Shown here: positions 462 through 52,832 of the stretch, piece after piece
Position numbering within the stretch: the first letter of the stretch is position 1
Layout: every line of letters begins with the position of its first letter
Origin: Lytechinus pictus
Lineage: Eukaryota
Direction of reading: 5' to 3'
NCBI RefSeq assembly: GCF_037042905.1
Contig: NC_087245.1
Location: 620,001 to 684,000 of the forward strand
Length of the DNA: 64,000 nt
Made by a program: the position numbers and the translations under genes
Notes under the pieces: model-generated
Told to the model about the DNA's origin: nothing
Databases searched by the model: none
Seen by the model: only the letters and a program-made list of their open reading frames with translations

Positions 462-1902
462 CACTCATCCTACGAACGAGGTTATATTATAATTAATAAT
501 ATAACCTCGTTCTCGTGTGTATACACTAGCATGGCCAAAAAAAGCATCGACTATTTTCCTCCTCTTCCCTCACCCAAACATCATGACCTTATCGAACTAG
601 ATCAAGTGTGATACTTGACATAAATTTATATAACAAATATGATCTAATTGCTGAAAATAATATGAAAAATGACTTAAAACTCACCGATTTTTCCACCTCC
701 GGTGACCGTCACTACTCTTGGTTCATTCAATGGTGTTTGACCGTGACAAATCGAAAAAGAAAAAAATATCACGAAGCCATAGAGGTCCATCCACCCGGAT
801 GGATGAAACACTACTCGTGATGCATTCTGGTAAACATGTCTCGATAGCCTCGACAGATTGGCAATTTTGTTTCGTCTAGATAAACATGTTTAAAGAATAA
901 AAAAGTCCAAAAACTCCAAATGGCTATTTTGGGGGGCTTATCTATAATATTTCTAGTACTGTATCCAGAGCATCATTTGTCTGTTTTCCTCTTCCCTTAC
1001 CCTTTCTTTCTTTTTTCTTTTGAGCGTAAATTAATTCTTTTGATTTTTTATTTCTTACTTTTTTCTCAGTCTTTGTTCTTTGTTTTTTTTTTCTTTATTT
1101 TTTAAGGGGAACTCTCCCCTCCTCCTGAAATTTAAGGGGTATTGAATGTGTAACCCCCCCCCCTCCGCCGCCTGTGACAACAATAATTCTTGTGTAAAAA
1201 AAAATAGTGAACAAAATATTGAGTGTCAGGCAGTGGCGTACCCAGGATTTTCCAAAGGGGGGGGGGGGGCAAATTCGTCCGCCAAAAAATTTGAAAAAAA
1301 AAAAAAAAAAAAAAAAGCTGGGTCTTCAAGTTCAAAAGAGGGGGCCACTTGTGGCTCGTCACAGGGATCAGTTGTGACTCGTCAGGGGGGCAGGGGTACG
1401 TCCCTTGCATGAGTTGTGACTCGTCAGGGGGTGCAGTGTGCCCTCCCTGCCCCTTAGGTACGTTAGTGGTGTCAGGTGAGAAAAAGACTACAGTCCCCGG
1501 ATCGCGGAGCTTCCTATTATTATGCTTCACCGGAAACAGGTAGGAGCTTATTGTAACCAGCTCTGTGGTTGCCACTGTTCAGTGGCTAGCTTTCTTTTAT
1601 TCAGCACAAGAGGGCGTGCTGAAATACTTACGTAGGAGACTATGGACCAGACGAGAATAAGGAAAATTTTCCTTATGATTTTACCCGATTTAGAAAGAAA
1701 TCTTCAATTGAAGGACGATATTTGACTCATTGGGCATTGGAATCCTGTTTAAGTAGAACCAAAATCAACACAAGAATTGGTAAGTCAGACTCTTTTACTT
1801 CGCGCGTTCCTACATAGAAATGACAGTGTTAGCGGCACTGGTCTCAGATCAGTCCCACCCCGTACATTTTTCTGTATGGCGAATGGTCGGGGTGAACCAG
1901 TG
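462..1902. mobile_element. CACTC-ended hairpin element (divergent member) inserted in the TAACCC MITE
   Basis: Starts CACTC, ends CAGTG; GGTAGAAG duplicated at 454-461 and 1903-1910; the uninterrupted site is visible in MITE copy 2 (~43930-43950); subterminal hairpin GAACGAGGTTA...TAACCTCGTTC. Confidence 0.65.
1231..1468. mobile_element. hAT-type MITE
   Basis: CAGTGGCGTACC...GGTACGTTAGTG imperfect TIR; 8-bp TSD GTGTCAGG at 1223-1230 and 1469-1476. Confidence 0.8.
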
Positions 1903-9317: not shown

Positions 9318-9582
9318 CCGGTGTGTTGGCTCAATTGGTAGAGCGTCCGTCTCACAACCGGGAGGTCGGGGGTTCAAACCCCGGCCGTGTCAGACCAAAA
9401 GACGTTTAAAGATGGGAGTTGCTACTACCCTGACTACCCTGTTTGGCGTTCAATAATTAAAGGGATAGAGCCTCGTCGATCTGGCGCTGCACAGCGGCTG
9501 CCGGGCCCACGACCAATTGGGCAAAACAAATTTTAGGAGTATTTCATCTCTGGTGTCTATTTCGAACAATAAAATATGGATT
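9318..9582 (+). mobile_element. tRNA-derived SINE
   Basis: A box TGGCTCAATTGG and B box GGTTCAAACC followed by a ~190-bp non-tRNA body; flanked by a degenerate AAGGAA(A)G(G)TAA repeat. Confidence 0.7.
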
Positions 9583-22163: not shown

Positions 22164-22236
22164 GCCTCCGTGGCCTAATGGATAAGGCATCGGTCTCCTA
22201 AACCGGGGATTGTGGGTTCGAGTCCCACCGGAGGTG
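22164..22236 (+). tRNA. tRNA-Arg (anticodon CCT)
   Basis: 73-nt cloverleaf: acceptor GCCTCCG/CGGAGGT, D arm GCCT/AGGC, anticodon arm TCGGT-CTCCTAA-ACCGG, T arm GTGGG-TTCGAGT-CCCAC, discriminator G; T5 Pol III terminator ~20 nt downstream. Confidence 0.93.
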
Positions 22237-24568
22237 GTGGTCAATAGGCGCCCTTATTTTTGTCTTTCCATATCATCTGAGAAAGATAGTTTTATTGTGT
22301 GTTAGGCGAGTGTATATCGGGTCAAGTAAACAATTGTGGCTATTGGTTTTTAGGATGGCCCCTTTATTGTGGACAACACTCGTCCAGTTTGTCAAATTGG
22401 ATACCAATTTTCTTCACCTAAAAACAAATCTATCCTCACCAAAATTAATAAATAGATAAATAAATGTTCCACTGTGTCCCAGATTATAATCATAATACAC
22501 GGGATTTTGCACTTTGAATGTTTACAGGAGCATTTAATGTTATATCTTATTCAAGACCAACAAACTGTTCACTGGACAAGGAACAATTTTTAAAGGTAAA
22601 GGGTATGGAATGAAACACTAGCGCTCCTTTCCCGGTCCTTTTCTTTGACTGAATGTCGTAGGGTGAGAAAATGGTTATTGTTTGGGTGGAGGGGCGAGAT
22701 AAGTCTATATTGTTATCCTTCTGTAAAATAGTCTTTGTGTGGACTCATGGGTCCATGCACTGGCTCGATCATTATGAAATCTAGATCCACTGCTATACAG
22801 TGAACTGCTATTGTCCCGGGATATTCACTTGAAAAGATAACCTAACACAATGTCGATGGTCTGATCTATTATTATCGCTTTTTGTCACGTGTTCTTGTAA
22901 ATACTGTTGACATCAAAGCAATGACATACAAGATTGGGAGATTACTATAGGCTAGAGCATCGATATTGGAGGCTATTTGAAACGTTGTGTATACCAGTAA
23001 AAAAAATTCGGTACTCGACACGTTACATAACAATTGTCATCTAATCTTCGTGTTTCGATGTTTTTTTTTTCAGGAAAGAAGCGGATAAGCACCCTTTTGG
23101 CCTTTTCTAATGTTTAATTTTAAACCTGCATATTTTTTATCAGGAGGTATCCACCGCAACATAGTCCAGGTAGTATGTGCACTGAAATCATAATCCAAAT
23201 GGACCCGGGGATGTAGGAAAGCCAGCTTTGATACAAGTTGAATAGATCACCAGCTTTGTCAGCCTTACGAGGAGTCGTCTATATAACATAATTATAACCA
23301 TAATGTTTTTCTTGTTTTGATGCATCGAGAATATCGGACTTTAATGTATAGGATCGAAGATTATACATTGGGCATCGAAAGCTATTTCATATCAGGACTG
23401 TGCACTGAATTATTTCGTTTCTTGTTTTCCTCGAGAAGAAACTTAAGAAATGATGATTTAATGCAATGCTGGAAAACACATTTTATATTTATCTCTACAA
23501 AGTCAATTGACCAACAAGATTGCATGACCTCATCCAGATACGGACTTTCTGTTGGCCCTATAGCTGCATCTTCTGAATAAATAAATATCTTCTTGTGGGT
23601 GCATGTGACATCTGGATAGTATATTTTCACACTTTGTGCAGTGCTGTAAACTTTTGTGCAGTGCTATATAGATATATTTGGACACCTTGGACTTCAAGTT
23701 GGTAAGTCACATCTTTCTAAATTAATTAATTAGTAACAAACCTTTTTGGGGATGAGTTCCTTTTGAGACAGCCACCCAAAGCGAACAATATACCGGTATT
23801 GGGGTCAGGGTTATGGTTAGGACAACTGGACAAGGGTTAATAGCTATAGGGCACTTGTTCACTGCAACCACCCTGCCTGTGGGGAATCTACAGGTTGGAC
23901 TATGGCATGCCAATGCTGTACAGAGCACACACTTTAAAAAATGATTAAAATATCACTTTTGTGACCAAAATTACTAATTTCCGTACAGTTGCAATTCATT
24001 TTTCATTAGTAACTTGGGATTATTTTTTGTATTCACTAGAGCGCTCAAAAACTTGAATTTTGGGCATATTTTTGTGAACGCCCTCTATTGGTGGAAAATA
24101 ATATGGCAATAAAATTTTCATTTTTTATCTCTATTTTTAATTAAGAAAAAAATAATTTAAAGAATCAAATTTACTTAAGGGCCAAGTTGTATGACGAATA
24201 GGTGTAATGGAAACTGTCAGTGTAAAAAAATCAAGCATTTGTCCCAAAGAAAAAGAGAAAATAAGCCAAACATTGCCATCCTTATTTTGCCACACATGGA
24301 GATATAACTGAGAACAAGGTTATATCATAACCTTGTTCATTGAATGAGTGCTATAGGGTTGGGGTCCATGGATGTCGCAAAAGGAACTCTTTCCCAAACG
24401 TTTCCACTCTCCATTATCCACTAGCAATGAATCATGTCAATTCTCTGGAAAGATTTCCTACTTATTTTTATTAACACATATGCAGATATTAATTTTACCA
24501 CATGTAGAGCATTTCCATTTATTTGATTCCAGTTAAAAAGAGCCATATAGACAAAATAATGCCTTGTC

Positions 24569-32293: not shown

Positions 32294-32813
32294 AGGACAA
32301 GTCCAACCCAACAAAATTATTTGAATAAAAAGAGAAAAATCCAACAAGCGTAACACTGAAAATTTCATCAAAATCGGATGTAAAATAAGAAAGTTATGAC
32401 ATTTTAAAGTTTCGCTTAATTTCATAAAACAGTTATACGCACATCCTGGTCAGTATGCAAATGAGGAGACTGATGACGTCATCCACTCACTATTTCTTTT
32501 GTATTTTATTATATGAAATATGAAATATTCTAATTTTCTCTTCATTGTCAAGTGAAAAGGTGATTAATTCCTCCCTATTCATCTGGAATTAGCATTGTTT
32601 AATACTATATGGTTCTGTCAAGTCGGTCCCTATGGTCAAATCTGTAAAAAATGAAATATTGTATAATTCAAACAATAGAAAACAAAAGAAATAGTGAGTG
32701 ATAGACATCATCGACTGACTCATTTGCATGTCACTGAGTTGTGCATATCATTGTTTTGTGAAAAATAAGCGAAACTTTAAAATGCCATAACTTTCTTATT
32801 TTACATCCGATTT
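32294..32813. mobile_element. Kolobok-like palindromic MITE, right end truncated
   Basis: TTAA|AGGACAAGTCCA start; closely matches the complete copy at 50201-50790. Confidence 0.75.
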
Positions 32814-33030
32814 TGTGGTCTAGTGGTTAAGGCACCGGCGTTCAAAGCTGGGGGCCCGGGTTCGATTCCCGGCAGAGACATTTTTTCGGCGTCACCAATT
32901 TTTCCAAAGGGTAGATAGCTCTGGGGAACCTTGATTTAAGTTAGGCCTACTATTGTTCTCTTCATCCATTTCTTTCACACGGTGTTTAAATAGAGGAGTT
33001 GTCGGGGCTGTTGTGCATGTATGGCTTCAC
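32814..33030 (+). mobile_element. tRNA-like SINE head, 5'-truncated
   Basis: TGGTCTAGTGGTTAAGG and GGTTCGATTCCCGG boxes; acceptor stem incomplete; followed by (CA)n(TA)n. Confidence 0.55.
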
Positions 33031-36178: not shown

Positions 36179-38350
36179 CACTCACACAACATGCGAGGTT
36201 AGTATACTAACCTCGCACAACACATGTGATTTCATAGTGCATTTTGACGTTTTCATCCATCACACGAATGTGAGGGACTAAACTACGCTAAACCTTTCAA
36301 TATTTGTCCACTATGTTTATCTTGATCGTATGATCAAGTTTATTGCAAAAAGCAATCATAAATTATTTATTAAAGTGTTTTTATCGCTTACCTCCAAATC
36401 TCAACCAGGATACTTCGCTCGGTCCGTCCTTAGTCATCCTTCGTACTGCGGTGGAAATTACGCAAACAACAATCGAAATGCGAAATTTTCCTATCGAACA
36501 TTCTCGATTCAAGTCGTCGGCGCATAATAGGAAATTGTACCAAAAATCAACATAGTTCTCTATTTATTCAAACAATTTTTTCTGGGGTGTACTTGACCTT
36601 TAAGAGATTTTCCGATGAAAATATTACATGGAACTTGGAAATACAAATCATAATTTGGTTGAACAAAATGTTTTCTGTTAAAGTATAAAACAGAAGAGGA
36701 ACATATATCCTTCACGTATTTTTATATCCAAAATATGTTGCCTTAGTATGGAATAATCACAATGACATAAAATGAAAATGGGTAAAGTACCTTTCTAATG
36801 ATCATTGAGATTTCGCCTGTGGAATCATTGTTTGATAATTTTCAAAGCTTTAAATAGATGAAAATGTTCATTGAGAAAATATACATATATATGTATGAAC
36901 AAAATGATAATGTCCCGATTGTTTCGCATTACGTGTGTTAGATTGCGGGCGTTTGTGTGTGTGTGTAGGAAGCAAGATGTTCGTGTTAATGTTTGCACAA
37001 AAAAGGAGAGGGAAAGGGAAAGGAAAAGGGAGGGGGAAAGGTAGAGGAGAGAGAGGGAAAAGGAGACCATAAAATAGAAAGAAAACAAAGGAAAGGAAGA
37101 GGGGAAGGGAGAGGGAAAGAAAAATGGAAAGAGCGAGAAAAGAGTATATAGGGGAGGGAGAAAGGAAAGAAAAGAAGGGAAAGGAAAAAGCGAGAAAGGG
37201 AATGGAGGGGGCGGGAAAGGAAAGGAGAGACAATAAAAGACAGATCAGGGGAGGGGGAAAAGTAGAGGAGAGAGAGGGAAAAGGAGACCATAAAATAGAA
37301 AGAAAACAAAAGAAAGGAAGAGGGGAAGGGAGAGGGAAAGAAAAATGGAAAGAGCGAGAAAAGAGTAGGGGAGGGAGAAAGGAAAGAAAAGAAGGGAAAG
37401 GAAAAGCGAAAAAGGGGAAGGGAAAGGGAGAGAAGAAAAGAAGGGAGAACGAAAATGGGGAAAGGGAGAAGGAGAGGGGATAATGAAGGGGATAGGAAAA
37501 TGTCAAGTTTGAAGATCTGAATATTAACACTAAAACAAAATTAGACTCCCATGTTTTATTTATAAAAATACCATCTTTTTCATGATTATAAAGGTTCAAC
37601 GTCCCTGTTCTAGGTCTAAACTTCAACATAAATCTACTGGCGCTTCGCGCTTGAATTCTGGAGGTCATTCCTCTTTTAAAAGTATAGGTAATCTGTCGGA
37701 CTTTTCAAATCCCAAATTTAAATCTTAAGCGCAAATGCCCTCGCATTATTTTTCATTTAGATACAGTCCTGTCATCAATATCAAAAACTCTAAGCGCGAG
37801 CTTCGCGCTGGCATCATTTTTGTAAGTGACATTTATGATGTTGTTCATATTTAAAAAATGTCCATTTGTTGAGGTTTAAATGTCCAAAAGTTCAGCGCTC
37901 GCATAATTTGTAAGGTAAATAGACCTACCCTTTTAATTGTTATACAAAGGCGCTTATACAACGTCCAGAATGCAGTTCGGAATATTGAAAATAACTATTG
38001 GTCCCGCTATTTCTGCCCGTGCGACAAGCATTTATCATTTTGAATCATGAGATTCACCTTTAAAATATGATGAAAAAGTATCGTTAAGACTGAATTAAGA
38101 AAAAAAGAAGCTTACGTTTCACGCTCACATTTTAATTGATCCGTTAGCTTGTGATAATAATGGTGACTTCGTTAATATATCTTAGCGGACATGTCCACCT
38201 TTTGGTGCTTCAAGAAAAATAAACACAACACACAAATAATAATAGAAAAACGAACAAGAATAGAATAGATAGTTACCTATCCCACTCATGAATTCTTATT
38301 TAACAGTCCCCAAAACGTATTTTTTTCGTGTTAGCTTATTTCATATACAT

Positions 38351-38383
<33 letters not shown>

Positions 38384-38402
38384 CGGGCGTAAATAAATCA
38401 AG

Positions 38403-38458
<56 letters not shown>

Positions 38459-38512
38459 TTCACACAATATTTAAATAAAAGAGTTGCCAAAGCTGTAGTA
38501 CACGTATAACTT

Positions 38513-38586
<74 letters not shown>

Positions 38587-39751
38587 TCTCCTCATCATGG
38601 TTATAAAAAGTGCTCAGAATGTTTTATTTTCAAGTCCTTGTATCAGAATCTTCAGCTCGGGCAGCTCTATCGCATTTTGATTACTATCCTGTTAATTTAT
38701 TTACTTGAACAAAATATTTAAAATGTCCAGCTTTTAGAACATCTATATCAAAAAAAAGGTATTCACCTTTGATCATAGATGAGGAAGAAGAAAAAAGTGA
38801 AAAAAAATAGGAAACAAACTAACGAATTAATGTGACATAATTTTTCTTCATTTCAAGGCGACTCTTTACATTTCATCATCGCTGATGGCGCTACAATAGA
38901 AAATACCGCTTGACAGCAAAAAAAAAACAGAAAGAGGAAAATAATGCTGAGCGTCTAAAATGCAGCTAGCAGTACAAGCTGCAGAACCGTAAACAAGGTG
39001 TCACGCGCGTAAAACATTCCCCATAGACTTGTGTGTTAAAATGGCACTTTTGAAAAATTCATAAAAAATAAATGTGAAATTAGAGGGTGGAATGTTTACT
39101 ACCAATGGATTGGATATATATCTGACATTCCAAATCTGACCAGGAAAGGGTACCGTAGCCAGCTCATTTTAAAAATAAATCGCCATTTATGAAGATAACT
39201 ATGAATCGATCGAATTCATCAACTGAAACAGTAAAATAGCCCTAATTATTCCGCCAGTCAAAAAAAAGTTCCAAGTCACTTATTTATCTTCCCAATTTGG
39301 GCGAAGTAAGTTCAGTAGTTACCATTTCTAGAATCAGTGTTAGATTTTGAATCACATTCATACATTTTTGTCAATCAGCAATATCAAATTGACAAAAATT
39401 CGAATGGGTTGGGTCGAACGAATATCTTTAGCCCTCCTGATGTAATTAGGCTCGTGGAACCACAAACATCTTGTGAATAATATCGCGCGCCCTCTTTAAG
39501 CAAAAGTTTACAACCACAATTACCCTGCGGTATCTACGTGAAGATCACGAGAAAATGCATTTTTTTTCTTAAAAACACACCAAAGAGAAGACAAGAAACG
39601 ATCCATATGGTTCGGTAAGTGTCATAGCACAATTAGAAACATTATTTTAAAAGGAATGGCTTAGTTATTTTAGTAAAAAGGGTGTGAAAAATTCGCGTGC
39701 ACCATGTGCATATGAATCCTTCGCACGCGAGATGCATTGATCCCATGAGTG
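36179..39751 (+). mobile_element. CACTC hairpin element copy A
   Basis: CACTC...GAGTG ends; 9-bp TSD GGCGGCTTC at 36170-36178 and 39752-39760; subterminal palindrome TGCGAGGTTAGTATACTAACCTCGCA. Confidence 0.85.
38997..39461. mobile_element. 465-bp insertion with 4-bp TSD inside copy A
   Basis: ACAA duplicated; imperfect TIR GGTGTCACGCGC / GCTCGTGGAACC; absent from copy B (empty site ~40160-40172). Confidence 0.8.
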
Positions 39752-39876
39752 GGCGGCTTCTAACCCAGGGAGCCCAGGGGCTTACCGTGTATTTGACCAT
39801 ACTCACAGGACTAGGGTGATTTATGGTCTAAATATTTCTCCAAATGAATTGTGAAAACAGAAAGTATACAATTACT

Positions 39877-42115
39877 CACTCATGGGATCAATGCATCTCG
39901 CGTGCGAAGGATTCATATGCACATGGTGCACGCAAATTTTTCGCACCCTTTTTACTGAAATAACTATGCCATTCCTTTAAAAATAATATTTCTAATTGTG
40001 CTATGACACTTACCGAACTATATGGATCGTTTCTTGTCTTCTCTTTGGTGTGTTTTTAAGAAAAAAAAAGCATTTTCTCGTGATCTTCACGTAGATACCG
40101 CAGGGTAATCGTGGTTGTAAACTTTTGCTTAAAGAGGGCGCGCGATATTATTCACAAGATGTTTGTTTACGGTTCTGCAGCTTGTACTGCTAGCTGCATT
40201 TTAGACGCTCAGCATTATTTTCCTCTTTCTGTTTTTTTTTTTGCTGTCAAGCGGTATTTTCTATTGTAGCGCCATCAGCGATGATGAAATGTAAAGAGTC
40301 GCCTTGAAATGAAGAAAAATTATGTCACATTAATTCGTTAGTTTGTTTCCTATTTTTTTGCACTTTTTTCTTCTTCCTCATCTATGATCAAAGGTGAATA
40401 CCTTTTTTTTTATATCTGTTCTAAAAGCTGGACATTTTAAATATTTTGTTCAAGTAAATAAATCAACAGGATAGTAATCAAAATGCGATAGAGCTGCCCG
40501 AGCTGAAAATTCTGATACAAGGACTTGAAAATAAAACATTCTGAGCACTTTTTATAACCATGATGAGGAGACCTATATATACATATGTATATGAAATAAG
40601 CTAACACGAAAAAGACGTTTTGGGGACTGTTAAATAAGAATTCATGAGTGGGATAGGTAACTATCTATTCTATCCTTGTTCGTTTTCTATTATTATTTGT
40701 GTGTTGTGTTTATTTTTCTTGAAGCACCAAAAGGTGGACATGTCCGCTAAGATATATTAACGAAGTCACCATTATTATCACAATTAAGCTAACGGATCAA
40801 AATGCGAGCGTGAAACGTGAGCTTCTTTTTTTCTTAATTCAGTCTTAACGATACTTTTTCATCATATTTTAAAGGTGAATCTCATGATTCAAAATGATAA
40901 ATGCTTGTCGCACGGGCAGAAATAGCGGGACCAATAGTTATTTTCAATATTCCGAACTGCATTCTGGACGTTGTATAAGCGCCTTTGTATAACAATTAAA
41001 AGGGTAGGCCTATTTACCTTACAAATTATGCGAGCGCTGAACTTTTGGACATTTAAACCTCAACAAATGGACATTTTTAAAATATGAACAACATCATAAA
41101 TGTCACTTACAAAAATGATGCCAGCGCGAAGCTCGCGCTTAGAGTTTTTTATATTGATGACAGGACTGTATCTAAATGAAAAATAATGCGAGGGCATTTG
41201 CGCTTAAGATTTAAATTTGGGATTTGAAAAGTCCGACAGATTACCTATACTTTTAAAAGAGGAATGACCTCCAGAATTCAAGCGCGAAGCGCCAGTAGAT
41301 TTATGTTGAAGTTTAGACCTAGAACAGGGACGTTGAACCTTTATAATCATGAAAAAGATGGTATTTTTATAAATAAAACATGGGAGTCTAATTTTGTTTT
41401 AGTGTTAATATTCAGATCTTCAAACTTGACATTTTCCTATCCCCTTCATCATCCCCTCTCCTTCTCCCTTTCCCCATTTTCGTTCTCCCTTCTTTTCTTC
41501 TCTCCCTTTCCCTTCCCTTTTTCGCTTTTCCTTTCCCTTCTTTTATTTCCTTTCTCCCTCCCCTACTCTTTTCTCGCTCTTTCCATTTTTCTTTCCCTCT
41601 CCCTTCCCCTCTTCCTTTCTTTTGTTTTCTTTCTATTTTATGGTCTCCTTTTCTCTCTCTCTCCTTTACCTTTCCCCCTCCCCTGATCTGTCTTTCATTG
41701 TCTCTCCTTTCCTTTACCGCCCCCTCCATTCCCTTTCTCGCTTTTTCCTTTCCCTTCTTTTCTTTCCTTTCTCCCTCCCCTACGACTTGAATCGAGAATG
41801 TTCGATAGGAAAATTTCGCATTTCGATTGTTGTTTGCGTAATTTCCACCGCAGTATGAGGATGACCAAGGACGGATCGAACGAAGTATCCTGGTTGAGAT
41901 TTGGAGGTAAGCGATAAAAACACCTTAATAAATAATTTATAATTCCTTTTTCAAATAATACGATCAAGATTAACATAGTGGACAAATATTGAAAGGCTTG
42001 GCGTAGTTTAGTCCCTCACATTCGTGTGATGAATGAAAACGTCAAAATGCACTATGAAATCACATGTGTTGTGCGAGGTTAGTATACCGTACTAACCTCG
42101 CATGTTGTGTGAGTG
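39877..42115 (-). mobile_element. CACTC hairpin element copy B (inverted, near-identical to copy A, with deletions)
   Basis: CACTC...GAGTG; 9-bp TSD ACAATTACT at 39868-39876 and 42116-42124. Confidence 0.85.
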
Positions 42116-42123
42116 ACAATTAC

Positions 42124-42810
42124 TAGGGTGTTTGGAGAAAAATATTATTTTTCTTATTTCAAGAAAATATCACATTTTCTTTGTGAATTTGAAGAGAAAT
42201 GACCTTCAGACTGACAGAAATGTAACATTTTTGAAAAAAATCTGATTATTGGCTACTAAAAAGAAGAATGAAATTGGGTCAATTTTCAGCATTTCTCTGC
42301 CATAGACTGTGTAGTTAAGAAATGGACACACACAAATCCAAATTTTTAGCTTCCGAGAGCTGTTAAGTGTTATAAATTTATTATTAATGCCAAAAACTTG
42401 TCCATAAAGAGTCCAATAGGATTTTTTATGCTCTTTCTGATGGTATGATTTTTATAAAGATTTGGAAACCAGATCACAATGAAAAATTGCGACAAAGTGC
42501 AAAATTGTGCAAAACAGAAATTTCATTTTCCCATAGAAAACGCATGGGGAAATGGCAATCTCAACACACACAAAAATAAGGGTTTGCAATTTATCTCTAA
42601 ATCCTCAATTCAAATGATCATATAAACTTGTCCTTACTGTCAAAAGAAGCCCCTGAATTTTCTCTTTCCATACATGCCAAACACAAGTTAATAATCAATT
42701 CAGATCACGTTTTTCTAGTAGCCTGAACTTCCCGAAAAAAATGTGCCACATTTTCCCCTAAATCAGCCTGTCTTATGCTGACACTTTTCAGTGTGGCTTC
42801 AGACACCCTA
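42124..42810. mobile_element. TAGGGTGT-ended non-autonomous element (hAT- or P-like)
   Basis: TAGGGTGT / ACACCCTA; (A)CAATTAC duplicated (7-8 bp); the host MITE sequence resumes afterwards. Confidence 0.75.
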
Positions 42811-42940
42811 CAATTACCACGATTATATTTATATGGATGAAGGTCTAACGAGTGGCAGTTTCCTGACATCTGGGCACAGATTGGAACCTCAAAAAAACGA
42901 AAAGTTCTCTCCTTCTATCCCCGTCTCGATCGGCCATTTT

Positions 42941-43900
42941 TGTCTCACCTGCATAGCAGAGTGAGACTATAGGCGCCGCTTTTCCGACGGCGGCGGCGAC
43001 GGCGGTGGCGGCGTCAACACCAAATCTTAACCTGAGGTTAAGTTTTTGAAATGACAGCATAACTTAGAAAGTATATGGACCTAGTTCATGAAACTTGGCC
43101 ATAAGGTCAATCAAGTATTACTGAACATCCTGCCTGAGTTTCATGTCACATGACCAAGGTCAAAGGTCATTTAGGGTCAATGAACTTAGACCATGTTGGG
43201 GGAATCAACATCAAAATCTTAACCTAAGGTTAAGTTTTTGAAATGTCATCATAACTTAGAAAATATATGGACCTAGTTCATGAAACTTATACATAAGGTT
43301 AATCAAGTATCACTGAACATCCTGCATGAGTTTCACATCACATGACCAAGGTCAAAGGTCATTTAGGGTCAATGAACTTTGGCCGAATTGGGGGTATCTG
43401 TTGAATTACCATCATAACTTTGAAAGTTTATGGATCTGATTCATGAAACTTGGACATAATAGTAATCAAGTATTACTGAACATCCTGTGCAAGTTTCAGG
43501 TCACATGATCAAGGTCAAAGGTCATTTAGGGTCAATGAACTTTGGCCAAATTGGGGTATTTGTTGAATTACAGCCATAAATTTGAAAGTGTGTTGGTCTA
43601 GTTCATAAAACTTGGACATAATAGTAATCAAGTATCACTGAACATCCTGTGCGAGTTTCAGGTCACATGATCAAGGTCAAAGGTCATGTAAGGTCAAAGA
43701 ACTTTGGCCACGTTGGGGGTATTTGTTGAATTGCCATCATATCTCTATAAGTGTATTGGTCTAGTTCATAAAACGTGGAAATAAGAGTAACCAAGTATCA
43801 CTGAACATCTTGTGCGAGTTATAGTAGTTTTCAAAATCAGCACTGCTGCTATATTGAATCGCGTGATGCAGGTGAGACGGCCAGAGGCATTCCACTTGTT
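42941..43900 (+). mobile_element. Helentron-associated (HINE/DINE-like) element with internal tandem repeats
   Basis: 5' GTCTCACCTGCAT with subterminal inverted ATGCAGGTGAGAC at 43866-43878; (GGC)n-like tract; about five 160-190-bp tandem units; inserted in a T-run with no clear TSD. Confidence 0.75.
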
Positions 43901-44113
43901 GTTAAAAACCGTAACAAAGTGGCCGATCGAGACTGGGGTAGAAGGAGAGAACTTTTCGTTTTTTGAGGTTCCAGTCTGTGCCCAGATCACTCACACTAGT
44001 AGTAGTACGAGGTTAGTAGTATTAGTATATATATACTAACCTCGTACACCGAACCGTGTTTGTCCCTTGATTTCGAAGTAGTCGGCAAACATCGCTTCAT
44101 TGCTGAAGTAATA

Positions 44114-45814
44114 CACTACTCAAAAAAAGTTAAGGACCACTTTTTAATGTGTGTATACAATTTTCAAACCGGGTGTTGTATTTCTAGAAATACCCGAATA
44201 TGGCTGTCTTGAATCTCCTCAAACACCCTGTAACAATTTCACACATGGGTGGTTTCAGTTGTTGCATGATGTCTCTCGCATTATTGCATATCCTGAAAAG
44301 TGGGCCCATTGTGAAGTGGTACAAATGTGGATTCAAATGCATTTTCTGTCTTTAGTCTCTACAATCAACAAATTGCTGACAACAGCAATGCCAAGATACA
44401 GCTGTCCAGGATGCCATCAAACACAATGAAATCAATTTCACACATGCAGTTCTTTCATGTCTCTTGCATCATTGCAATGTGCCCGTACAAAAGTGGCTTC
44501 CAAAGCATTTTCCGTCTTTAGTCTGTACAATAAACAACTTTCCTACAACAGCAATGCCAAGACACCACCTAAGTGAAACAGATGTAGCCAGAGCCCTAGG
44601 GATGCTGGAAGCTGGCCTCAGTCAGCGAAGAGTAGCCAGAATGATGGGCGTGTCACACAGTGTCATTAGCAGAGCAAATCAAAGACACCGAGAGACAGGG
44701 CTATACTCCGAGAGACCCCGCAGTGGCCGACCAGTTTCGACAACCCCTAGAGATGATCGCTACTTGACGAATCTCAGCCTCCGCAACCGCTTTCACAGTG
44801 CACGCCGCCTCAACAATGACTTCGCTGCAGCAACTGGAGTGATTGTTTCCACTCAAACAATCCGTAACCGACTTCACAGAGCCAATATGCATGCCAGACG
44901 GCCAGCTCAGTGTGTCCCACTCACCCCTGCTCACAGAAGAATTCGTCTCAACTGGGCCCGGGAGCATGTCAGATGGACCAGACAGCAATGGCGTAGAGTT
45001 CTGTTCACAGATGAGAGCAGATTTTCCCTTGACCACAATGATGGACGTTCGAGAGTCTGGAGGCGACCAGGAGAGAGATTTGCAGACCCCTGTATTGCAG
45101 AACATGACCGTTATGGGGGAGGCAGCGTCATGGTGTGGGGAGGCATCACCTACGCCAACCGTACTCGTCTCTACGTGGTCCCAGGGGGAGCAATGACAGG
45201 AGTGAGGTACAGGGATGAGGTCCTTGAACCTAAAGTGGTGCCATTTGCAGAAAATGTGGGACAAAACATCATTTTCATGGATGACAATGCCGGTGCCCAC
45301 CGAGCTAGGGTGGTGACCGAGTTCCTTGAGGGCCAGGGGATTGAGCGTATGGAGTGGCCAGCGAGGTCCCCGGACTTAAACCCGATAGAGCACGTCTGGG
45401 ACATGATGGGGAGGAGTCTCGAGCAGCTCGAAGCCCATCCACTTGGACTGCAGCAGCTGGGTGTGGCTCTGGAGGCTGCATGGGATGCACTGGACGTCAG
45501 AGACATCAATCGCCTCATCAGCTCCATGAGACAGCGCTGTGAAGCCGTTATTGCTGCAGGAGGTGGTGACACTCAGACATTCGTTTTTACCACTTCATGT
45601 CGGTAGCTGATACCCCTCGGGGCCCACTTTTCAGGATGTGCAGTGATGCGAGAGACATTGTGCAACAACTGAAACCACCCATGCGTGAAATTGATTACAG
45701 CGTGTTTAAGGACATTTAGGACAGTTGTACTGAGGTATTTCCAGAAATAAAACACCTTGTATAAAATCTTTATGTACGTTTTAAAAAGTGGTCCTTAACT
45801 TTTTTTGAGTAGTG
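44114..45814 (+). mobile_element. Full-length Tc1-family DNA transposon
   Basis: TA TSD; perfect 34-bp outer TIR extending imperfectly to ~195 bp; intact transposase ORF. Confidence 0.95.
44554..45606 (+). CDS. Tc1 DD34E transposase (350 aa from the first ATG)
   Basis: N-terminal HTH region, RSGRP motif, catalytic FTDESRF / MDDNA / SPDLNPIE with 34 residues between the second D and E; the ORF-track start at 44464 is TTG. Confidence 0.95.
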   Translation: MPRHHLSETDVARALGMLEAGLSQRRVARMMGVSHSVISRANQRHRETGLYSERPRSGRPVSTTPRDDRYLTNLSLRNRFHSARRLNNDFAAATGVIVSTQTIRNRLHRANMHARRPAQCVPLTPAHRRIRLNWAREHVRWTRQQWRRVLFTDESRFSLDHNDGRSRVWRRPGERFADPCIAEHDRYGGGSVMVWGGITYANRTRLYVVPGGAMTGVRYRDEVLEPKVVPFAENVGQNIIFMDDNAGAHRARVVTEFLEGQGIERMEWPARSPDLNPIEHVWDMMGRSLEQLEAHPLGLQQLGVALEAAWDALDVRDINRLISSMRQRCEAVIAAGGGDTQTFVFTTSCR

Positions 45815-47993
45815 TATTTGCCGAAACTCCTTCTCGCTACTCACCGGGGCTCTTTCCGGTAAGTAGCAATACATTAAAAAATTTTAAATGTAATTTGAAT
45901 ATAATATTAATAATCGGTCAAAAAGAGCAAATTTCGCTTACCTCGGCCTGGAAAGTAACTTCGCTTGTCTCTTCTACGGAAATACAAGGAGGCCCGTTGG
46001 TGGCGCTAATAAATTTCACAACCTTGATTCAGCTCCTCGGTAATTTTATAACTGTGTCTAAATTCTTTGAATGCGCAATTCTTATGATTAATTTACTAAT
46101 TATGGGCACCAATAAATGAAATACCTTCAAACATGTCAAAAACATAATTCAATATTATTATTGGCGATGACAACACTTTTCTGCAATTAATTTAAAACGA
46201 TGACTAATAAAGAAAAATTGAAAAAAATATACGTGCCTGGAACAAAACCAGCAGTACAGGCTTTAACGAACATCAATAATACGGTATATACCAAAGTCTT
46301 TACAATGAAAAGATTGGACACTTCACGGACTTTGCGTAATGACCTGCGTCAATTTGCGTGTAAAATAGTGTAGGTGCCTAGTCTTTCCCTTGTCGTGTCT
46401 TTGATATGAATATAAATCGCGCGCCCTCTTTAGACGAAAATTGATATCGGCGCTGACCAAATTTTATCTTCACTAAAGATCAAGAAAATATACATATATT
46501 TTAGAAGAAACTTCAAGGAGAAGTCACGGAAGGATCTAAATGATTGGGTAAGTGTCATAGCAAAATGTGAAATCCCTAATTATATGTGATGTTTTATGTG
46601 GGCGAAAGCCCAGTAGTATATGGATGTGTCGTGTGTGTCGCGTTATTATGAATGATATTCCTTTGCACTCGAGATGATATGAGCCCATGGGTGGCCCAGA
46701 TGTCAGGAAACTGCCACTCCTTAGACCTTCATCCATGTAATCGTGGTAATTGTATACTTTCTGTTTTCACAATTCATTTGGAGAAATATTTAGACCATAA
46801 ATCACCCTAGTCCCGTCAGTATGGTCAAATACGCGGTAAGCCCCTGGGCTCCCGCCCGCTGCGCGGGCGGGAGCTCCCTGGGTTAGGAGGCTTCTAGAGA
46901 GTAAAAATCATTTACTAACGTAAGGTTACTCTCATACGAAGCCAGGGAGTCCTCCCTATTCATCTGCGTGTACCGCAAAAAATCTGAAACTTTTGCCCCC
47001 GAGATTTCTACTTTCCTTCTAAAAAGTCTAGTTCTAAATCATGTACATGGGATAAAACTTCATTTCCGACATTTCTATGCTCTCACGCTCGCGTCCGTAA
47101 CGTTGGGGAAGTACAATAAGAAACAAGATGGCGGCTTAAACATCGGGCAAGTCTCTTCCGTCTTTTCACAATATTTTTTCATTTTTTTAAATGAATTCTT
47201 GTTTAAAAATAACAACGAGAGCGTAGAAATGTCGGAAATTAAGTTTTATTCCATGTACATGATTTAGGTCTAGATCTTTTAGAAGGAAAGTAGAAATCTC
47301 GGGTTGAAAGTTTCAGGTTTTGGCTTCCTTTGTGTGGGTCTATAAGATAGAAGCCCTGGCTTCGTATGAGAGTAACCTTACGTTAGTAAATGATTTTTAC
47401 TCTCTAGAAGCTGCCTGGCTACTCAAGGGTTCGATACATGCCGCCGTGCTAGTATTGAGGACTCCATGATGATGTCTTTATTAAATACTTTGACATATAC
47501 TTCTTCATCATTGGAGTCTTGAACCGCCCTATATGTATAAGAGACACATGTAAACAAAGATGGATTTCCCTAGGAAATCCATCTTTTAACAGTGAGTAGG
47601 CGCTGGTCAAAAAATTGGGAATGTCCCAGTTTACAGAATACAGGGACTGTCTCAGTTTTCAAAGATTTCTCCACACAAGAAATCTAGGAAAGTTCATTCA
47701 CCTGTCAAGTGCCGACATCAATTGAGTGCGCTAGTCAATGTAAACATATCAGGTTTCATATAACAAGATTATTGGAAGACAGCAAGTCATGAAAAATAGA
47801 CGGTGAACTGGGGGAATTGAGGTCACTGAATCTATTTTAAGCACTCTCAATCCCCGTAATTACTGTCTATGTCCCGCAGGGGTAAGTGAAAAAAAACTGT
47901 CCCCATAAACAAGGATAATCTCAATTTATCAAGACATGATTTGTCCTGGTTTAAGAGGATATGAGGATATGTTTAATATAAAAATCACGTATA

Positions 47994-49323
47994 CAGACCT
48001 GCCAACTGTCCCGATTTTATCGGGATCGTCCCGATTTACAACTTCCAAATGGCCAAAAATCGGGACGTCCCGATTTTTGAAATTTCATGTGAGAAAAAAA
48101 AACATTGTAAACTAAACCGAAAGAGGGCGTCATCATATTACCGCCGTATTTTTTCTTCATGCTATGCTACGTACTGCGATTCGCACAGCGTGTGTACAGT
48201 ATGCACTCTGCAGTTTAGTGTTCAGCAGTGCGTAATAGGTAATACATGTAGTATGGTTTGCTGAACCGCACTACGAAAAAAAAGTGACTTGGCCGTCGCA
48301 CACGGAACATGTGTTATTGTGTTTTTGTCTAGGCTTTTCGATTAATCTTCGATATCCTGGCGAATCAGTGCGGGCGACAAGTTCCGAACGCACGCACATC
48401 TAAGAGCGCAAAGCAGCGGCACAAATCGCGATATATAGCGACTGGTAAATACGTCTGTAAGGATGATGACGTCATCCAAGATGGCAACTTACGTTGACCA
48501 ACGAAAGGATCGAAGGTGACGATGTTTCGATTATCATTTGAAAGGAATTATAGCGGTAACTGCGGTCTAAGGTACAATATTTCTGAATTTTATACATTTT
48601 TACGAAAATATGAATGTAATTTCTTTTTCATAATGTGGTATTTTATGTACAAAAAAACGATCGGAAAATCGGTTTCCGCCGAATGTTAGATCTAACATTA
48701 CTGCTAATACGTTGTCTGTACGTACGGACCTCCAAGCTCTTCAGTCTATGTATTGGTGAGTGAGCCAACGCAGTTCAGCGGAACAACCAAAATACAGAGA
48801 CTGAAGCTTTTGGTCTAAGACATTACATGCTACGCCGCTTCTTACAGTGTAAGTGTGCTCAAGAATGCAAAGACAGCCACGTACAAAGCACTCCATCAGA
48901 AGGAAGGTGCTTCAAGTTCCACAGAATAATATTTAAGTTCAGTTGAAAGGTAGGTATATGTATAGTGTAAATAGTGCAAAATGTTGGGTGACATCAAAAT
49001 TAAGAGACTTGCTGTTGTATTAATTTACAAATAAATTACAAATAAATACAAATAATTTACAAATGATAAAAATGTACAAGCCCACTTTGATTACACCACA
49101 GTGAATTTCAAAAGATTTTGCAACCTTCAATACATTCATTTCAAGTATGAAAATTGTGTTCCCTTGGCCTTTATAGTTGCTAAAATCCAACAGCTTCGCG
49201 GGGCGCTGCCCTCTGAACCCCCGCAAGGGGCGCTGCCCCTGGACCCCGCTGGGGGACTAGGCGACCCCCAGCCGGTGGTTGTCCAGATTTGGGGTTTCCA
49301 ATTTCCAAATGTTGGCAGGTATG
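47994..49323. mobile_element. hAT-like non-autonomous element
   Basis: CAGACCTGCCAAC / GTTGGCAGGTATG TIR; GTCCCGATTT subterminal repeats; only CGTATA duplicated. Confidence 0.65.
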
Positions 49324-49716
49324 CGTATATTGTTGTGATTTTATTAATCTCTACGCCTAATGCGTAGGAAGGTTTTTAAAAATAAAGGTTTCTTACCAGA
49401 CCGATGTCGTGTAGATCCCTCGATCCAAATGTACACAACGCAAATACAATAGGGTTGACCCTTGAACCGCTTATGTATGACGTACATCCGGTTAGCAATG
49501 CCGTTTTGAAGAACAATTTATAGATAAAAATTATTATTTCACAAATACTAAAATTTATTACGTGATTATCAATAATTAGCAGTATAACACTAATTATTTA
49601 TAATCACGTAAGTTCTCGAAGTTCGGGTAGGTGAAGCGTAGTGTAGCGGTAGTGTTAAAAGTGGAGTGGAGCCTGCACAAACTTCGCTCGAGGTAGGTAA
49701 AATCAAGGCACGACGT

Positions 49717-52700
49717 CACCCATGGGTTCATTTCATCTCGCGTGCGAAGGAATATCAAATGCACATGATGCACGCGACACATGCAAATCTTTACAAAGAT
49801 TACATTAAATTTAAATTTCACATTGTGTGATAGCACTTACCAGGCATATGGATCCTTTGGTGACTTCTCTTTGCTGTTTTAAAAAAAAAGGATTTTTTTT
49901 TATCTTCACGTACATGTAGATGCCCTTCGATCAGCGACAAAATCAATTTTGGCCTAAAGAGGGCGTGCGATATTATTTATGAACCGGTTTGTTTACGCAT
50001 GAAATAACGGGTCTGAAGCTTGTACTGCTAGCTGCATTCTAGGCGCTCAGCATTATTTTCTTGCTCGTTCAGTCCACTTTCATCATCTTGTCAAAAGATG
50101 GCGTACATGTACTTCACCTAGGTATGTGACAAAAAAAAATAAAAATCATGGAATTACGTTGTAACCTAGTCCATTTGAAAGGGCTGAAAAAAACATTTAA
50201 AGGACAAGTCCACCCCAACAAAAAGTTGATTTGAATAATAAGAGAAAAATCCAACAAGCATAACACTGAAAATTTCATCAAAATCGGATGTAAAATAAGA
50301 AAGTTATGATATTTTAAACTTTCGCTTAATTTTATAAAACAGTTATATGCACATCCTGGCTGTTATGCAAATGAGGAAACTATGACGTCATCCACTCACT
50401 ATTTCTTTTGTATTTTATTATATGAAATATTCTAATTTTCTCCTCATTGTCAAGTAATACAACGATTAATTCCTCCCTGAACATGTGGAATTAGCATTGT
50501 TTAATACTATATGGTTCAGTCAAGTTGGTCCTTATTGTCAAATCTATAAAAAATGAAATATTGTATAATAATAATTCAAACAAAAAACAAAAGAAATAGT
50601 GAGTGATGGACATCATCGACTGACTCACCTAGTAATGTGCATATCACTGTTTTGTGAAAAATAAGAGAAACTTTAAAATGTCATAACTTTCTTATTTTAC
50701 ATCCGATTTTGATGAAATTTTCAGCACTATGCTATGTTTGATTTTTCTCTATTTATTCAAGTAAGCAATTTCCTGGGGTAGACTTGACCTTTAAAATGGT
50801 ATATTTATTATAAACCATTACACTAGGCCAAATATTAAGAGAGTTATGATTTTTTTAATATTAAAAATCTGATTGAATTATTGCCATTGTCTTACCATTG
50901 CGACCATTGAAAATGTGTGACCGACCGTGACCAAAAAATGTTTTTTTTACAAAATTATACAAATTATTAATTTTACTCTATAAAACTGAGTAAAAACAGG
51001 TGATGAGAAAGGATATCAATATTTGTCTTAATTCATCAATTTTTTAAATATTTAATTAATAATTATCAGTTAGTAAATTGATATGTTAATTGTTCATAAA
51101 CTCATTACCAAACACATACAAACTTATATAATTTCCTTATTGTTTGGAATTTTTTGACAGGAACTTCTGCAACAACACATCTTCTAAATAAAACTTTCAG
51201 AATGATAAAACATTGAATACTTACAGAAAGATCTCAGTATTTGATAAATGTATTGATTAGTAATTATCAATTAGCATATTAATTAGTTATCTATTCAAAT
51301 CTCACTGCTGCAAAAAAAAAATCCTGATTTGGTATATTTTGATGGAAGTTTCTGCTAAGGAAACATGGAATATAATGGATATGTGATCTATGAATATAAG
51401 GAATGGAAGTATTTAAAAAACATTCAACAATTTCATGTACATCATTTACAAACATGTACATGTATGACAACTATTATTGGTTGGCATCCATTGAATTTGT
51501 ACCAAATGGGAAAAGCCGTAGATGGCGTCAACCAGTGTTCGCCAGTTTCTGGTCGCTTTAACATGTGTTTTATTGAACAAAATTTTGATGTCAGTTTCTA
51601 CTCTTATATATACATGTATCAGTAACAAAAATAAAATCTTTTATAATTTATAATTAAACTGTGTATGAGCACATGATTCAATGCAGGACCTAGAATTATA
51701 TTATTTTTTATTATTATTATTTTTTCATTATTTTTTTCTTGGGTGACCTCAGGCTAAGTTTGCCTAAATAAATGATAAATGACATCCCTAATATCTTACA
51801 ACAAAACACTGAAAACAAGCTAAAATTGTGTAATGTGTATATTTATATTCATCAAAGGATGTAATAACTAATGATCTGAATATAAACAAGTAGACTCTAG
51901 ATCTCAAAAGCAAATAATATTTCAATCAATGCAATGCACAAACTGCTAGCATAACCCCTCTGAGCCGGTGCACCCATAACAGGCCTCCCGGCGACACTGC
52001 ACTCATCATGATGGTCGCATAGCACGCAACACTCGCGGCAGTTTGCTATTTCTGGCAATCAATTTTTAGGATGTAAAAAATAAATGATCTGATTTTTAGA
52101 TTCGATTTATATTCACCACACACCAAGAAAAATATATGAACAAGCTGTTAAAATAAGGTTTAAAAACTGTCAAAAGTTACCTTCAGGGCTGGTCACGATG
52201 TATAAAGACAACATTAGACTTTCACATGAGCCAAATCCAACTTCCATGCTTCCGATCTTCAAAATTTGACATCGAGGCGAAGGGGATTTTTTTCAGCTAC
52301 GTCATCAGTGAAAATAAGCCAAATTGGCGAGAAACCACCAAATCTACACCCATTTGAAGCCACCTCTTACAGAGCAACCCAAGCTCGTTTTGAAACCGCT
52401 GCCGGTGCCGCGGTATTGAGATCACATCGCGCGATAGTCACATACCTACTTCACCTATAAGTATATACATGAGATGCACCCTGTTGATTTTTTGTACAAT
52501 TTCCTATTATGCGCCGACGACTTGAATCGAGACTGTTCGATAGGAAAAATTCGCTTCTCGATTGTTGTTTACGTAATTTCCAGTATCAAGGATCTTCGGA
52601 CGGACCGGACGGAGTATCTAAGCGTTAAAAATCATTTATAAATAATTTCGTCTATATTTTTTAAATTAAGTTATTTAATAAGATTTAAATTTATGTAGTG

Positions 52701-52832
52701 AATAAATGTATAAGGTTTTGGCGTGTTTTATTCCCTCACATTCGTGTGATGAATGAAAACGTCAAAATCCATAGTCAAATCACATGCGTTGTGCGAGGTT
52801 AGTATAGCTAACCTTGCATGCATGTATGAGTG
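49717..52832 (-). mobile_element. CACTC hairpin element copy D (older)
   Basis: CACCCATGGG...TGAGTG; both ends homologous to copy B; decayed 9-bp TSD GCACGACGT / GCACAACAC (two CpG>CpA changes). Confidence 0.75.
50201..50790. mobile_element. Kolobok-like palindromic MITE
   Basis: TTAA TSD on both sides, AGG...CCT termini, long inverted arms. Confidence 0.85.

Follow-up and report, generated by a model that had tools for sequence, protein, structure and literature searches.

Lytechinus pictus carries gene-less transposons with a covarying hairpin at one end and a possible link to P-type transposases

Which enzyme moves a DNA transposon that carries no gene, has dissimilar ends and bears a hairpin near one end only? 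This question is raised by a 64,000-nucleotide (nt) stretch of the sea urchin Lytechinus pictus, contig NC_087245.1 of assembly GCF_037042905.1 (C1:620,001-684,000 of our genome G000, an 812-Mb assembly). We call the whole stretch the window; it is repeat-rich and located before an OATP exon. A first-pass annotation, made from the letters of the window, had described here one unclassified family of five elements with CAC..GTG termini, target-site duplications (TSDs) of 8-9 bp and a single subterminal hairpin each. The group is real, abundant, young and structurally unusual. Its members are DNA transposons without genes and fall into seven or more related families, and on balance we lean towards their mobilisation by a divergent transposase of the P superfamily, itself not found. 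The elements and their hairpin cores are:

462..1902, plus strand: element 1, family F1, hairpin end left, exact 8-bp TSD GGTAGAAG; sits within the host element MITE M (miniature inverted-repeat transposable element M)
479..507, plus strand: hairpin core of element 1, from AGGT (nt 18) through ACCT
23852..24350, minus strand: sixth element, absent from the first-pass annotation; it belongs to family F6, core CAAGGTTA/TAACCTTG, 499 bp, 8-bp TSD
36179..39751, plus strand: element 2, family FA, exact 9-bp TSD GGCGGCTTC
36196..36213, plus strand: hairpin core of element 2
39877..42115, minus strand: element 3, family FA in opposite orientation to element 2, exact 9-bp TSD ACAATTACT
42076..42098, minus strand: hairpin core of element 3
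43988..46693, plus strand: element 4 of family F4, about 1 kb long once a nested Tc1 is subtracted, exact 8-bp TSD GCCCAGAT
44010..44042, plus strand: hairpin core of element 4, lying further inward owing to a short duplication close to the terminus
49717..52832, minus strand: element 5, a relative of FA/F5, decayed 9-bp TSD (6/9)
52796..52814, minus strand: hairpin core of element 5, with one mismatch

The coordinates, the termini, the single hairpins, the outer stem pairs and the core mismatch in element 5 agree with the first description. A TSD at every element was also claimed; this is exact in four, while element 5 retains only six of nine positions. Its TSD is supported by homologous empty sites in L051 and L053 which hold the 9-mer once, and the differences are transitions. 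For elements 1 and 4 a single-copy empty site is present inside the window itself (at 43933 and 1945, respectively). The TSD 9-mer of element 2 is identical to the 9-mer flanking the adjoining copy of MITE M, and the TSD of element 3 overlaps the end of a repeat X. Two points have to be revised. The five elements represent four families, i.e., elements 2 and 3 are about 97% alike and elements 1, 4 and 5 are distinct; and the fixed part of the hairpin is AGGT/ACCT rather than a constant core CGAGGTTA. The proposal that these transposons form a group which looks unclassified and shares a conserved, covarying hairpin is upheld and is widened to seven families.

Genome-wide, exact hairpins with a CGAGG core (CGAGGTTA..TAACCTCG) occur 1129 times versus 2 matches with a reversed control. 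Exact CAAGG-core hairpins are found 680 times (control 8), mixed-arm hairpins 116 times (control 2), and a further hairpin pattern matches 593 times (control 17), with family F8 accounting for 95 of the first 100 matches listed. Summed over the patterns this amounts to about 2,500 hairpin ends. A pattern scan of metagenomes returned 35 matches, about the estimated chance level, and no group members. For detailed comparison 167 stretches (1.72 Mb) were used in which a script marked 107 candidate ends; 10 were discarded by eye as spurious. The remaining 97 ends are a non-random sample: they come from the places on C1 that headed the listing, from 17 of the 40 top-scoring FA matches and from windows around transposases. 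The families, at least seven and all non-autonomous, are FA (1.8-4.8 kb), F1 (1.0-1.4 kb), F4 (about 1 kb), F8 (about 880 bp), F5 (about 775 bp), F6 (about 500 bp) and F180 (180 bp).

A second end together with a TSD (at most one mismatch) was located for 57 of the 97 ends; the remaining 40 had suffered truncation, rearrangement or decay, or ran over the border of a stretch. The TSDs are 8 bp long in 17 copies, 9 bp in 37, 10 bp in three and 7 bp in none, whereby the longest-match rule lengthens some by one chance base. F1, F6 and F8 mostly have 8 bp, the others mostly 9 bp. Pairs of unrelated flanks gave a TSD-like match in 10 of 5472 cases. All seven family consensuses have CAC at both ends. 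Beyond that the ends are dissimilar: only 3-7 terminal bases match, and terminal inverted repeats (TIRs) of the P type (13-32 bp, or 3 bp plus subterminal inverted repeats, sub-TIRs, common to both ends) are absent; the inverted partner of nt 14-29 is located in the same end. Helentrons and DINE-1 elements also combine unequal ends with a subterminal palindrome; they are rolling-circle elements which are not known to make long TSDs. The hairpin group differs by its 8-9-bp TSDs, and 51 of the 57 TSDs (8-10 bp) are exact, which does not agree with a Helitron or Helentron.

The 9-bp targets share a weak GC-rich symmetric motif (r=0.76, 0 of 5000 permutations, n=33). An end motif lies at most 30 bp away in 9 of the 57 insertions, two of them probably spurious, against a background of 3.6%. 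Elements inserted straight into the hairpin of another group member were seen in L046 (2203), L035 (4116) and L031 (586). In L030 (9213-9236) two second ends of F180 point towards one another, 22 bp apart, with the target 9-mer inverted between them; this arrangement resembles the outcome of an aberrant or local transposition.

The hairpin itself is well preserved. Eleven stem positions are paired in 83-97 of the 97 ends. Seven of the 11 pairs show at least two Watson-Crick types between families, and the four core pairs AGGT/ACCT never switch. The switches are family-level events and thus represent few independent changes. Folding of one representative per family gave z-scores of -3.8 to -6.8 at the hairpin end versus +0.6 to -2.9 at the other end. 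The spacing between the hairpin cores ranges from 7 to 28 nt. Loop indels are present in 20 of 64 aligned copies (33 of the 97 were not aligned), compared to at most two per family in other 10-nt bins, and three copies are broken in or at the loop. AGGT begins at nt 18 in 72 of the 97 hairpin ends and in six of the seven family consensuses (F4 at 17); in 11 ends short duplications outside the core push it inward. At the other end, where nt 4-17 are variable, 55 of 57 copies and the consensus of each of the seven families have a C at position 18. Both ends have this fixed landmark immediately after nt 17.

It is plausible that the hairpin is a recognition signal which is read as a structure. 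A competing reading, to which we accord somewhat less than an even chance, treats the hairpin as two inverted binding sites in duplex DNA, the arms of which covary by template-switch correction and not by selection for folding. The fixed four-pair core suggests a reading of sequence. In F1, F6 and F8 the right arm, taken together with the bases that follow it, resembles, by eye, the first 11-13 nt of the other end, and the 116 mixed-arm copies also point in this direction. However, the variable spacing of the cores is difficult to reconcile with a rigid dimer, and the stem is kept at one position across families whose interiors share no similarity.

How do these properties compare with known transposases? 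The P superfamily, which is absent from the candidates of the first-pass annotation, fits best in our judgement, with somewhat better than an even chance. The termini of the group are CA..TG as in P elements, and the TSDs compare with 7-8 bp for P and 8-9 bp for the P elements of the repleta lineage (PMC3698922). The genome contains 41 P-type RNase H matches, some within open frames of 601-959 aa. The P transposase cleaves 17 nt inside each end and binds the inner half of the TIR with its helix-turn-helix; in its strand-transfer complex the 5' part of the nicked strand re-pairs. This re-pairing is required, and the route of P ends to the re-paired state is described as unclear (PMC7776569). 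In the Drosophila P TIR, given as a guide RNA target and counted from its first C, AGGT occupies nt 18-21 (PMC11368186). Second ends of F180 match a THAP site (PMC3698922, Table 1) at 7 of 8 positions, with about one such match expected by chance according to our estimate.

The closest precedent is the P element of the Drosophila repleta group together with its MITE BuT5 (PMC3698922). Both have TIRs of 3 bp, their sub-TIRs end at nt 30-32, and their TSDs are a mixture of 8 and 9 bp. Like the hairpin elements BuT5 is non-coding and about 1 kb long, has a conserved segment ending near nt 30 and is a secondary coloniser of repeat clusters. It differs in its 16-17-bp sub-TIRs, which match between the ends, and in its known parent; a hairpin is not mentioned in the available text (PMC3698922). 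In the hairpin group the match lies within one end, and the group comprises thousands of copies and at least seven families. Drosophila melanogaster P also starts with CA, has AGGT at nt 18-21 and a long TSD, and its two ends are functionally unequal; it differs in its perfect 31-bp TIRs, a strictly 8-bp TSD and, as far as the available text goes, the lack of a hairpin (PMC7776569, PMC11368186). Because TIRs common to both ends, one defining feature, are missing, we do not file the group as a member of P, yet it likely works like P.

A mechanism can be sketched along these lines. A P-like enzyme would cleave at the 3' ends and introduce a nick 17 nt inside on the opposite strand. The left arm (nt 14-29) would correspond to the inner half of a P-type TIR, with its inverted partner placed next to it and not at the opposite end of the element. 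The 5'-AGGT strand released by the nick could then fold onto the right arm, replacing the strand re-pairing which P ends need. Error-prone repair near the nick site would account both for the instability of the loop and for the short duplications seen within the outermost 17-20 nt. The full scenario is more tentative, and we consider it rather unlikely as a whole: a TIR-less lineage, P-derived or new, in which one end provides both inner binding arms as a hairpin folding at a nick 17 nt inside, so that the recognition of ends relies on DNA structure at a single end, and which has spread to about 2,500 copies and supplies promoters and first exons to host genes. If P-type mobilisation is true, these ends, with their nt-18 register, covarying stem and no TIR, would constitute a ready natural test set for the re-pairing of P ends; elements of the smallest family are only 180 bp long. 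A large and young group of sea urchin repeats would gain a classification as well. If it is wrong, the group points toward an undescribed enzyme.

Several observations weigh against a P-type enzyme. A parent element was not found; the flanks of seven of the 41 P matches were viewed and none is enclosed by these ends, and no delimited element contains a P or THAP remnant. The AGGT likeness consists of four letters, was noticed post hoc and concerns a single P family, with F4 one position off. The sub-TIRs of BuT5 match between both ends (PMC3698922), those here do not. The canonical P TSD is 8 bp. Searches with four patterns for P-type footprints of about 17+17 nt revealed none, the 1, 1, 2 and 2 matches obtained (one shared) being near chance. 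A hairpin at a P end is described in no paper found. The literature search turned up no paper on this architecture, its coverage excluding most subscription papers and Repbase Reports. Finally, a THAP-P gene in L287 and its 53% identical relative in L291 possess other, TIR-like ends which resemble each other.

The P screen covered six 10-kb windows and one match within L124, out of the 41 P matches. Among these, L287 has the sole hairpin end beside a P gene; it is positioned in intron 1 of the THAP-P gene. This end aligns to F6 over about 490 bp (local score 95 versus a shuffled maximum of 45) and has no second end. Considering also the gene's own TIR-like ends, it is an incidental insertion. 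A composite P element using a hairpin unit as terminal repeat was rejected for the F6-like nature of this end and the other ends of the P gene. A rescan of the transposase windows with all end types yielded two intact hairpin ends, neither around a gene. Going by coordinates, two F8 ends (C2:50,379,758 and C1:38,646,234) face P fragments at a distance of 13-19 kb, with about 0.6 such cases expected by chance. The first-pass annotation had advised a look at long copies with open reading frames; the 8.7-kb copy in L065 contains a long interspersed nuclear element. The FA arm shares 15 nt with a THAP exon junction; as the frames are not conserved between families, this was taken as chance. By position, four THAP exons have a hairpin 17.5-21 kb downstream; as candidate parents these pairs were set aside and read as a passenger F180 inside a 27-kb palindromic element. 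This THAP exon family has about 25 copies (e.g., C1:23,529,189), apparently carried in such 27-kb elements. Viral contigs were searched and contained no relative of P.

The L287 element (C6:10,242,970-10,250,940) is a lone THAP-P element with a broken frame; a deleted derivative is located at C3:72,539,073-72,542,497. Close relatives (53-83% identical) were found in hagfish, toadfish and limpet, and also on a contig which looks eukaryotic within a bacterial metagenome-assembled genome (L291), a distribution of similar sequences hinting at horizontal spread. Another P-type transposase (L288, 5058-6947) has a RAG1-like N-terminal region in place of THAP (RAG1_imp_bd, E 0.0015, below cut-off). 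Tandem repeats amplified from KDZ and P transposase exons are present at C6:8.765-8.804 Mb, C20:17.19 Mb and C1:38.665-38.685 Mb of G000.

Other enzymes have been weighed against a P-type transposase. The most durable rival holds that the parent belongs to a transposase lineage not yet described and that the likeness to P reflects chance or convergence; we regard it as improbable though worth retaining. Four superfamilies were screened without a parent emerging, the available P papers mention no hairpin, and the ends differ from the P ends in L287 and L291. Yet the screens covered part of the KDZ, Academ, MULE and P matches and miss intron-rich genes, and the nt-18 register and the BuT5 precedent agree with P. 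For the CMC/CMCT superfamilies (EnSpm, Chapaev, Transib) the misfit noted at first sight holds: their TSDs have 2-5 bp (PMC12730594) versus 8-10 bp here.

The partners proposed initially were KDZ, Academ (DUF6589) and MULE transposases; in the windows examined none of their genes is enclosed by hairpin ends. A KDZ transposase (Kyakuja or Zisupton) has a small chance of being the mover. Kyakuja has CA..TG termini without TIRs, as seen here, Zisupton has 8-bp TSDs (PMC12730594), and the genome contains one whole, intron-rich KDZ gene plus fragments. Kyakuja, however, has a TSD of 7 bp, a length found in none of our 57 copies, which mostly have 9 bp; its examples are fungal, and no hairpin is mentioned in the available text (PMC12730594). 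It is unlinked here: 250 kb around the whole gene and four fragment loci contained no enclosing ends, although intron-rich copies could escape. CxC4 was without a match, in a search that matched nowhere at all. Derivation from non-TIR MULE or hAT elements appears equally remote. MULEs make TSDs of 8-11 bp and include groups that lack TIRs, for instance Curupira (PMC6446971), and clustering close to genes would suit MULE and hAT; against this, 15 windows centred on 15 of 17 MULE matches had no intact hairpin end. Least probable of all is an origin from AcademH, for which speak TSDs of 9-10 bp (PMC10045372) and the presence of DUF6589 genes and a RecQ-type helicase in the genome, and against which stand the 8-bp TSDs of three families and 15 windows of 20 kb on 26 DUF6589 matches without a hairpin end, even if some elements may outsize the windows. 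Several Academ-like genes of 1,450-1,850 aa, with a second frame upstream, are present in L145-L158; near-identical copies suggest that they were recently active.

Do the elements affect their host? A central region with splice donors is retained in F1, F4 and F5. In the window the donor of element 4 is:

45935..45944, minus strand: F4 splice donor, directed toward the hairpin end

In RNA run X19, eight reads splice the F4 reverse donor to single-copy genomic sequence with an acceptor before an ATG on C3. An F4 copy in the right orientation lies about 30 kb upstream of this acceptor (G000:C3:69,774,659-69,807,723, L169-L173); we infer that it is the source of these reads. This copy is broken in the loop and contains an F1, and the host exon has no Pfam match. 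In the F4 copy of L052, RNA reads show the same donor spliced to a host exon. A second set of three spliced reads (15/19 match, C21) is only suggestive. As RNA reads join an F4 donor to a host exon, the elements likely rewire host transcripts.

Further features of the window concern the surroundings of the hairpin elements:

39761..46885, no strand assigned: MITE M, host element with TAACCC termini and its own 9-bp TSD; encloses elements 3 and 4 and adjoins element 2
44114..45814, plus strand: Tc1 nested in element 4, 1.7 kb, with TA duplication, own TIRs and an open 408-aa DDE_3 frame

MITE M (162-2125 and 39761-46885) is about 530 bp long and near-palindromic. It is a different kind of element from the hairpin elements; nesting of the two is frequent and occurs both ways. 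The Tc1 is possibly young. As a partner enzyme for element 4 it was rejected; with its TA duplication and own TIRs it is a passenger. tRNA-like matches at 9320-9392, 22164-22236 and 32809-32880 are probably heads of short interspersed nuclear elements, and an Rfam search returned nothing but three tRNA matches. Repeat X (42124-42809) is about 685 bp long, with TAGGG..CCCTA termini and an apparent 7-bp TSD; copies were seen in L063, L079 and L031.

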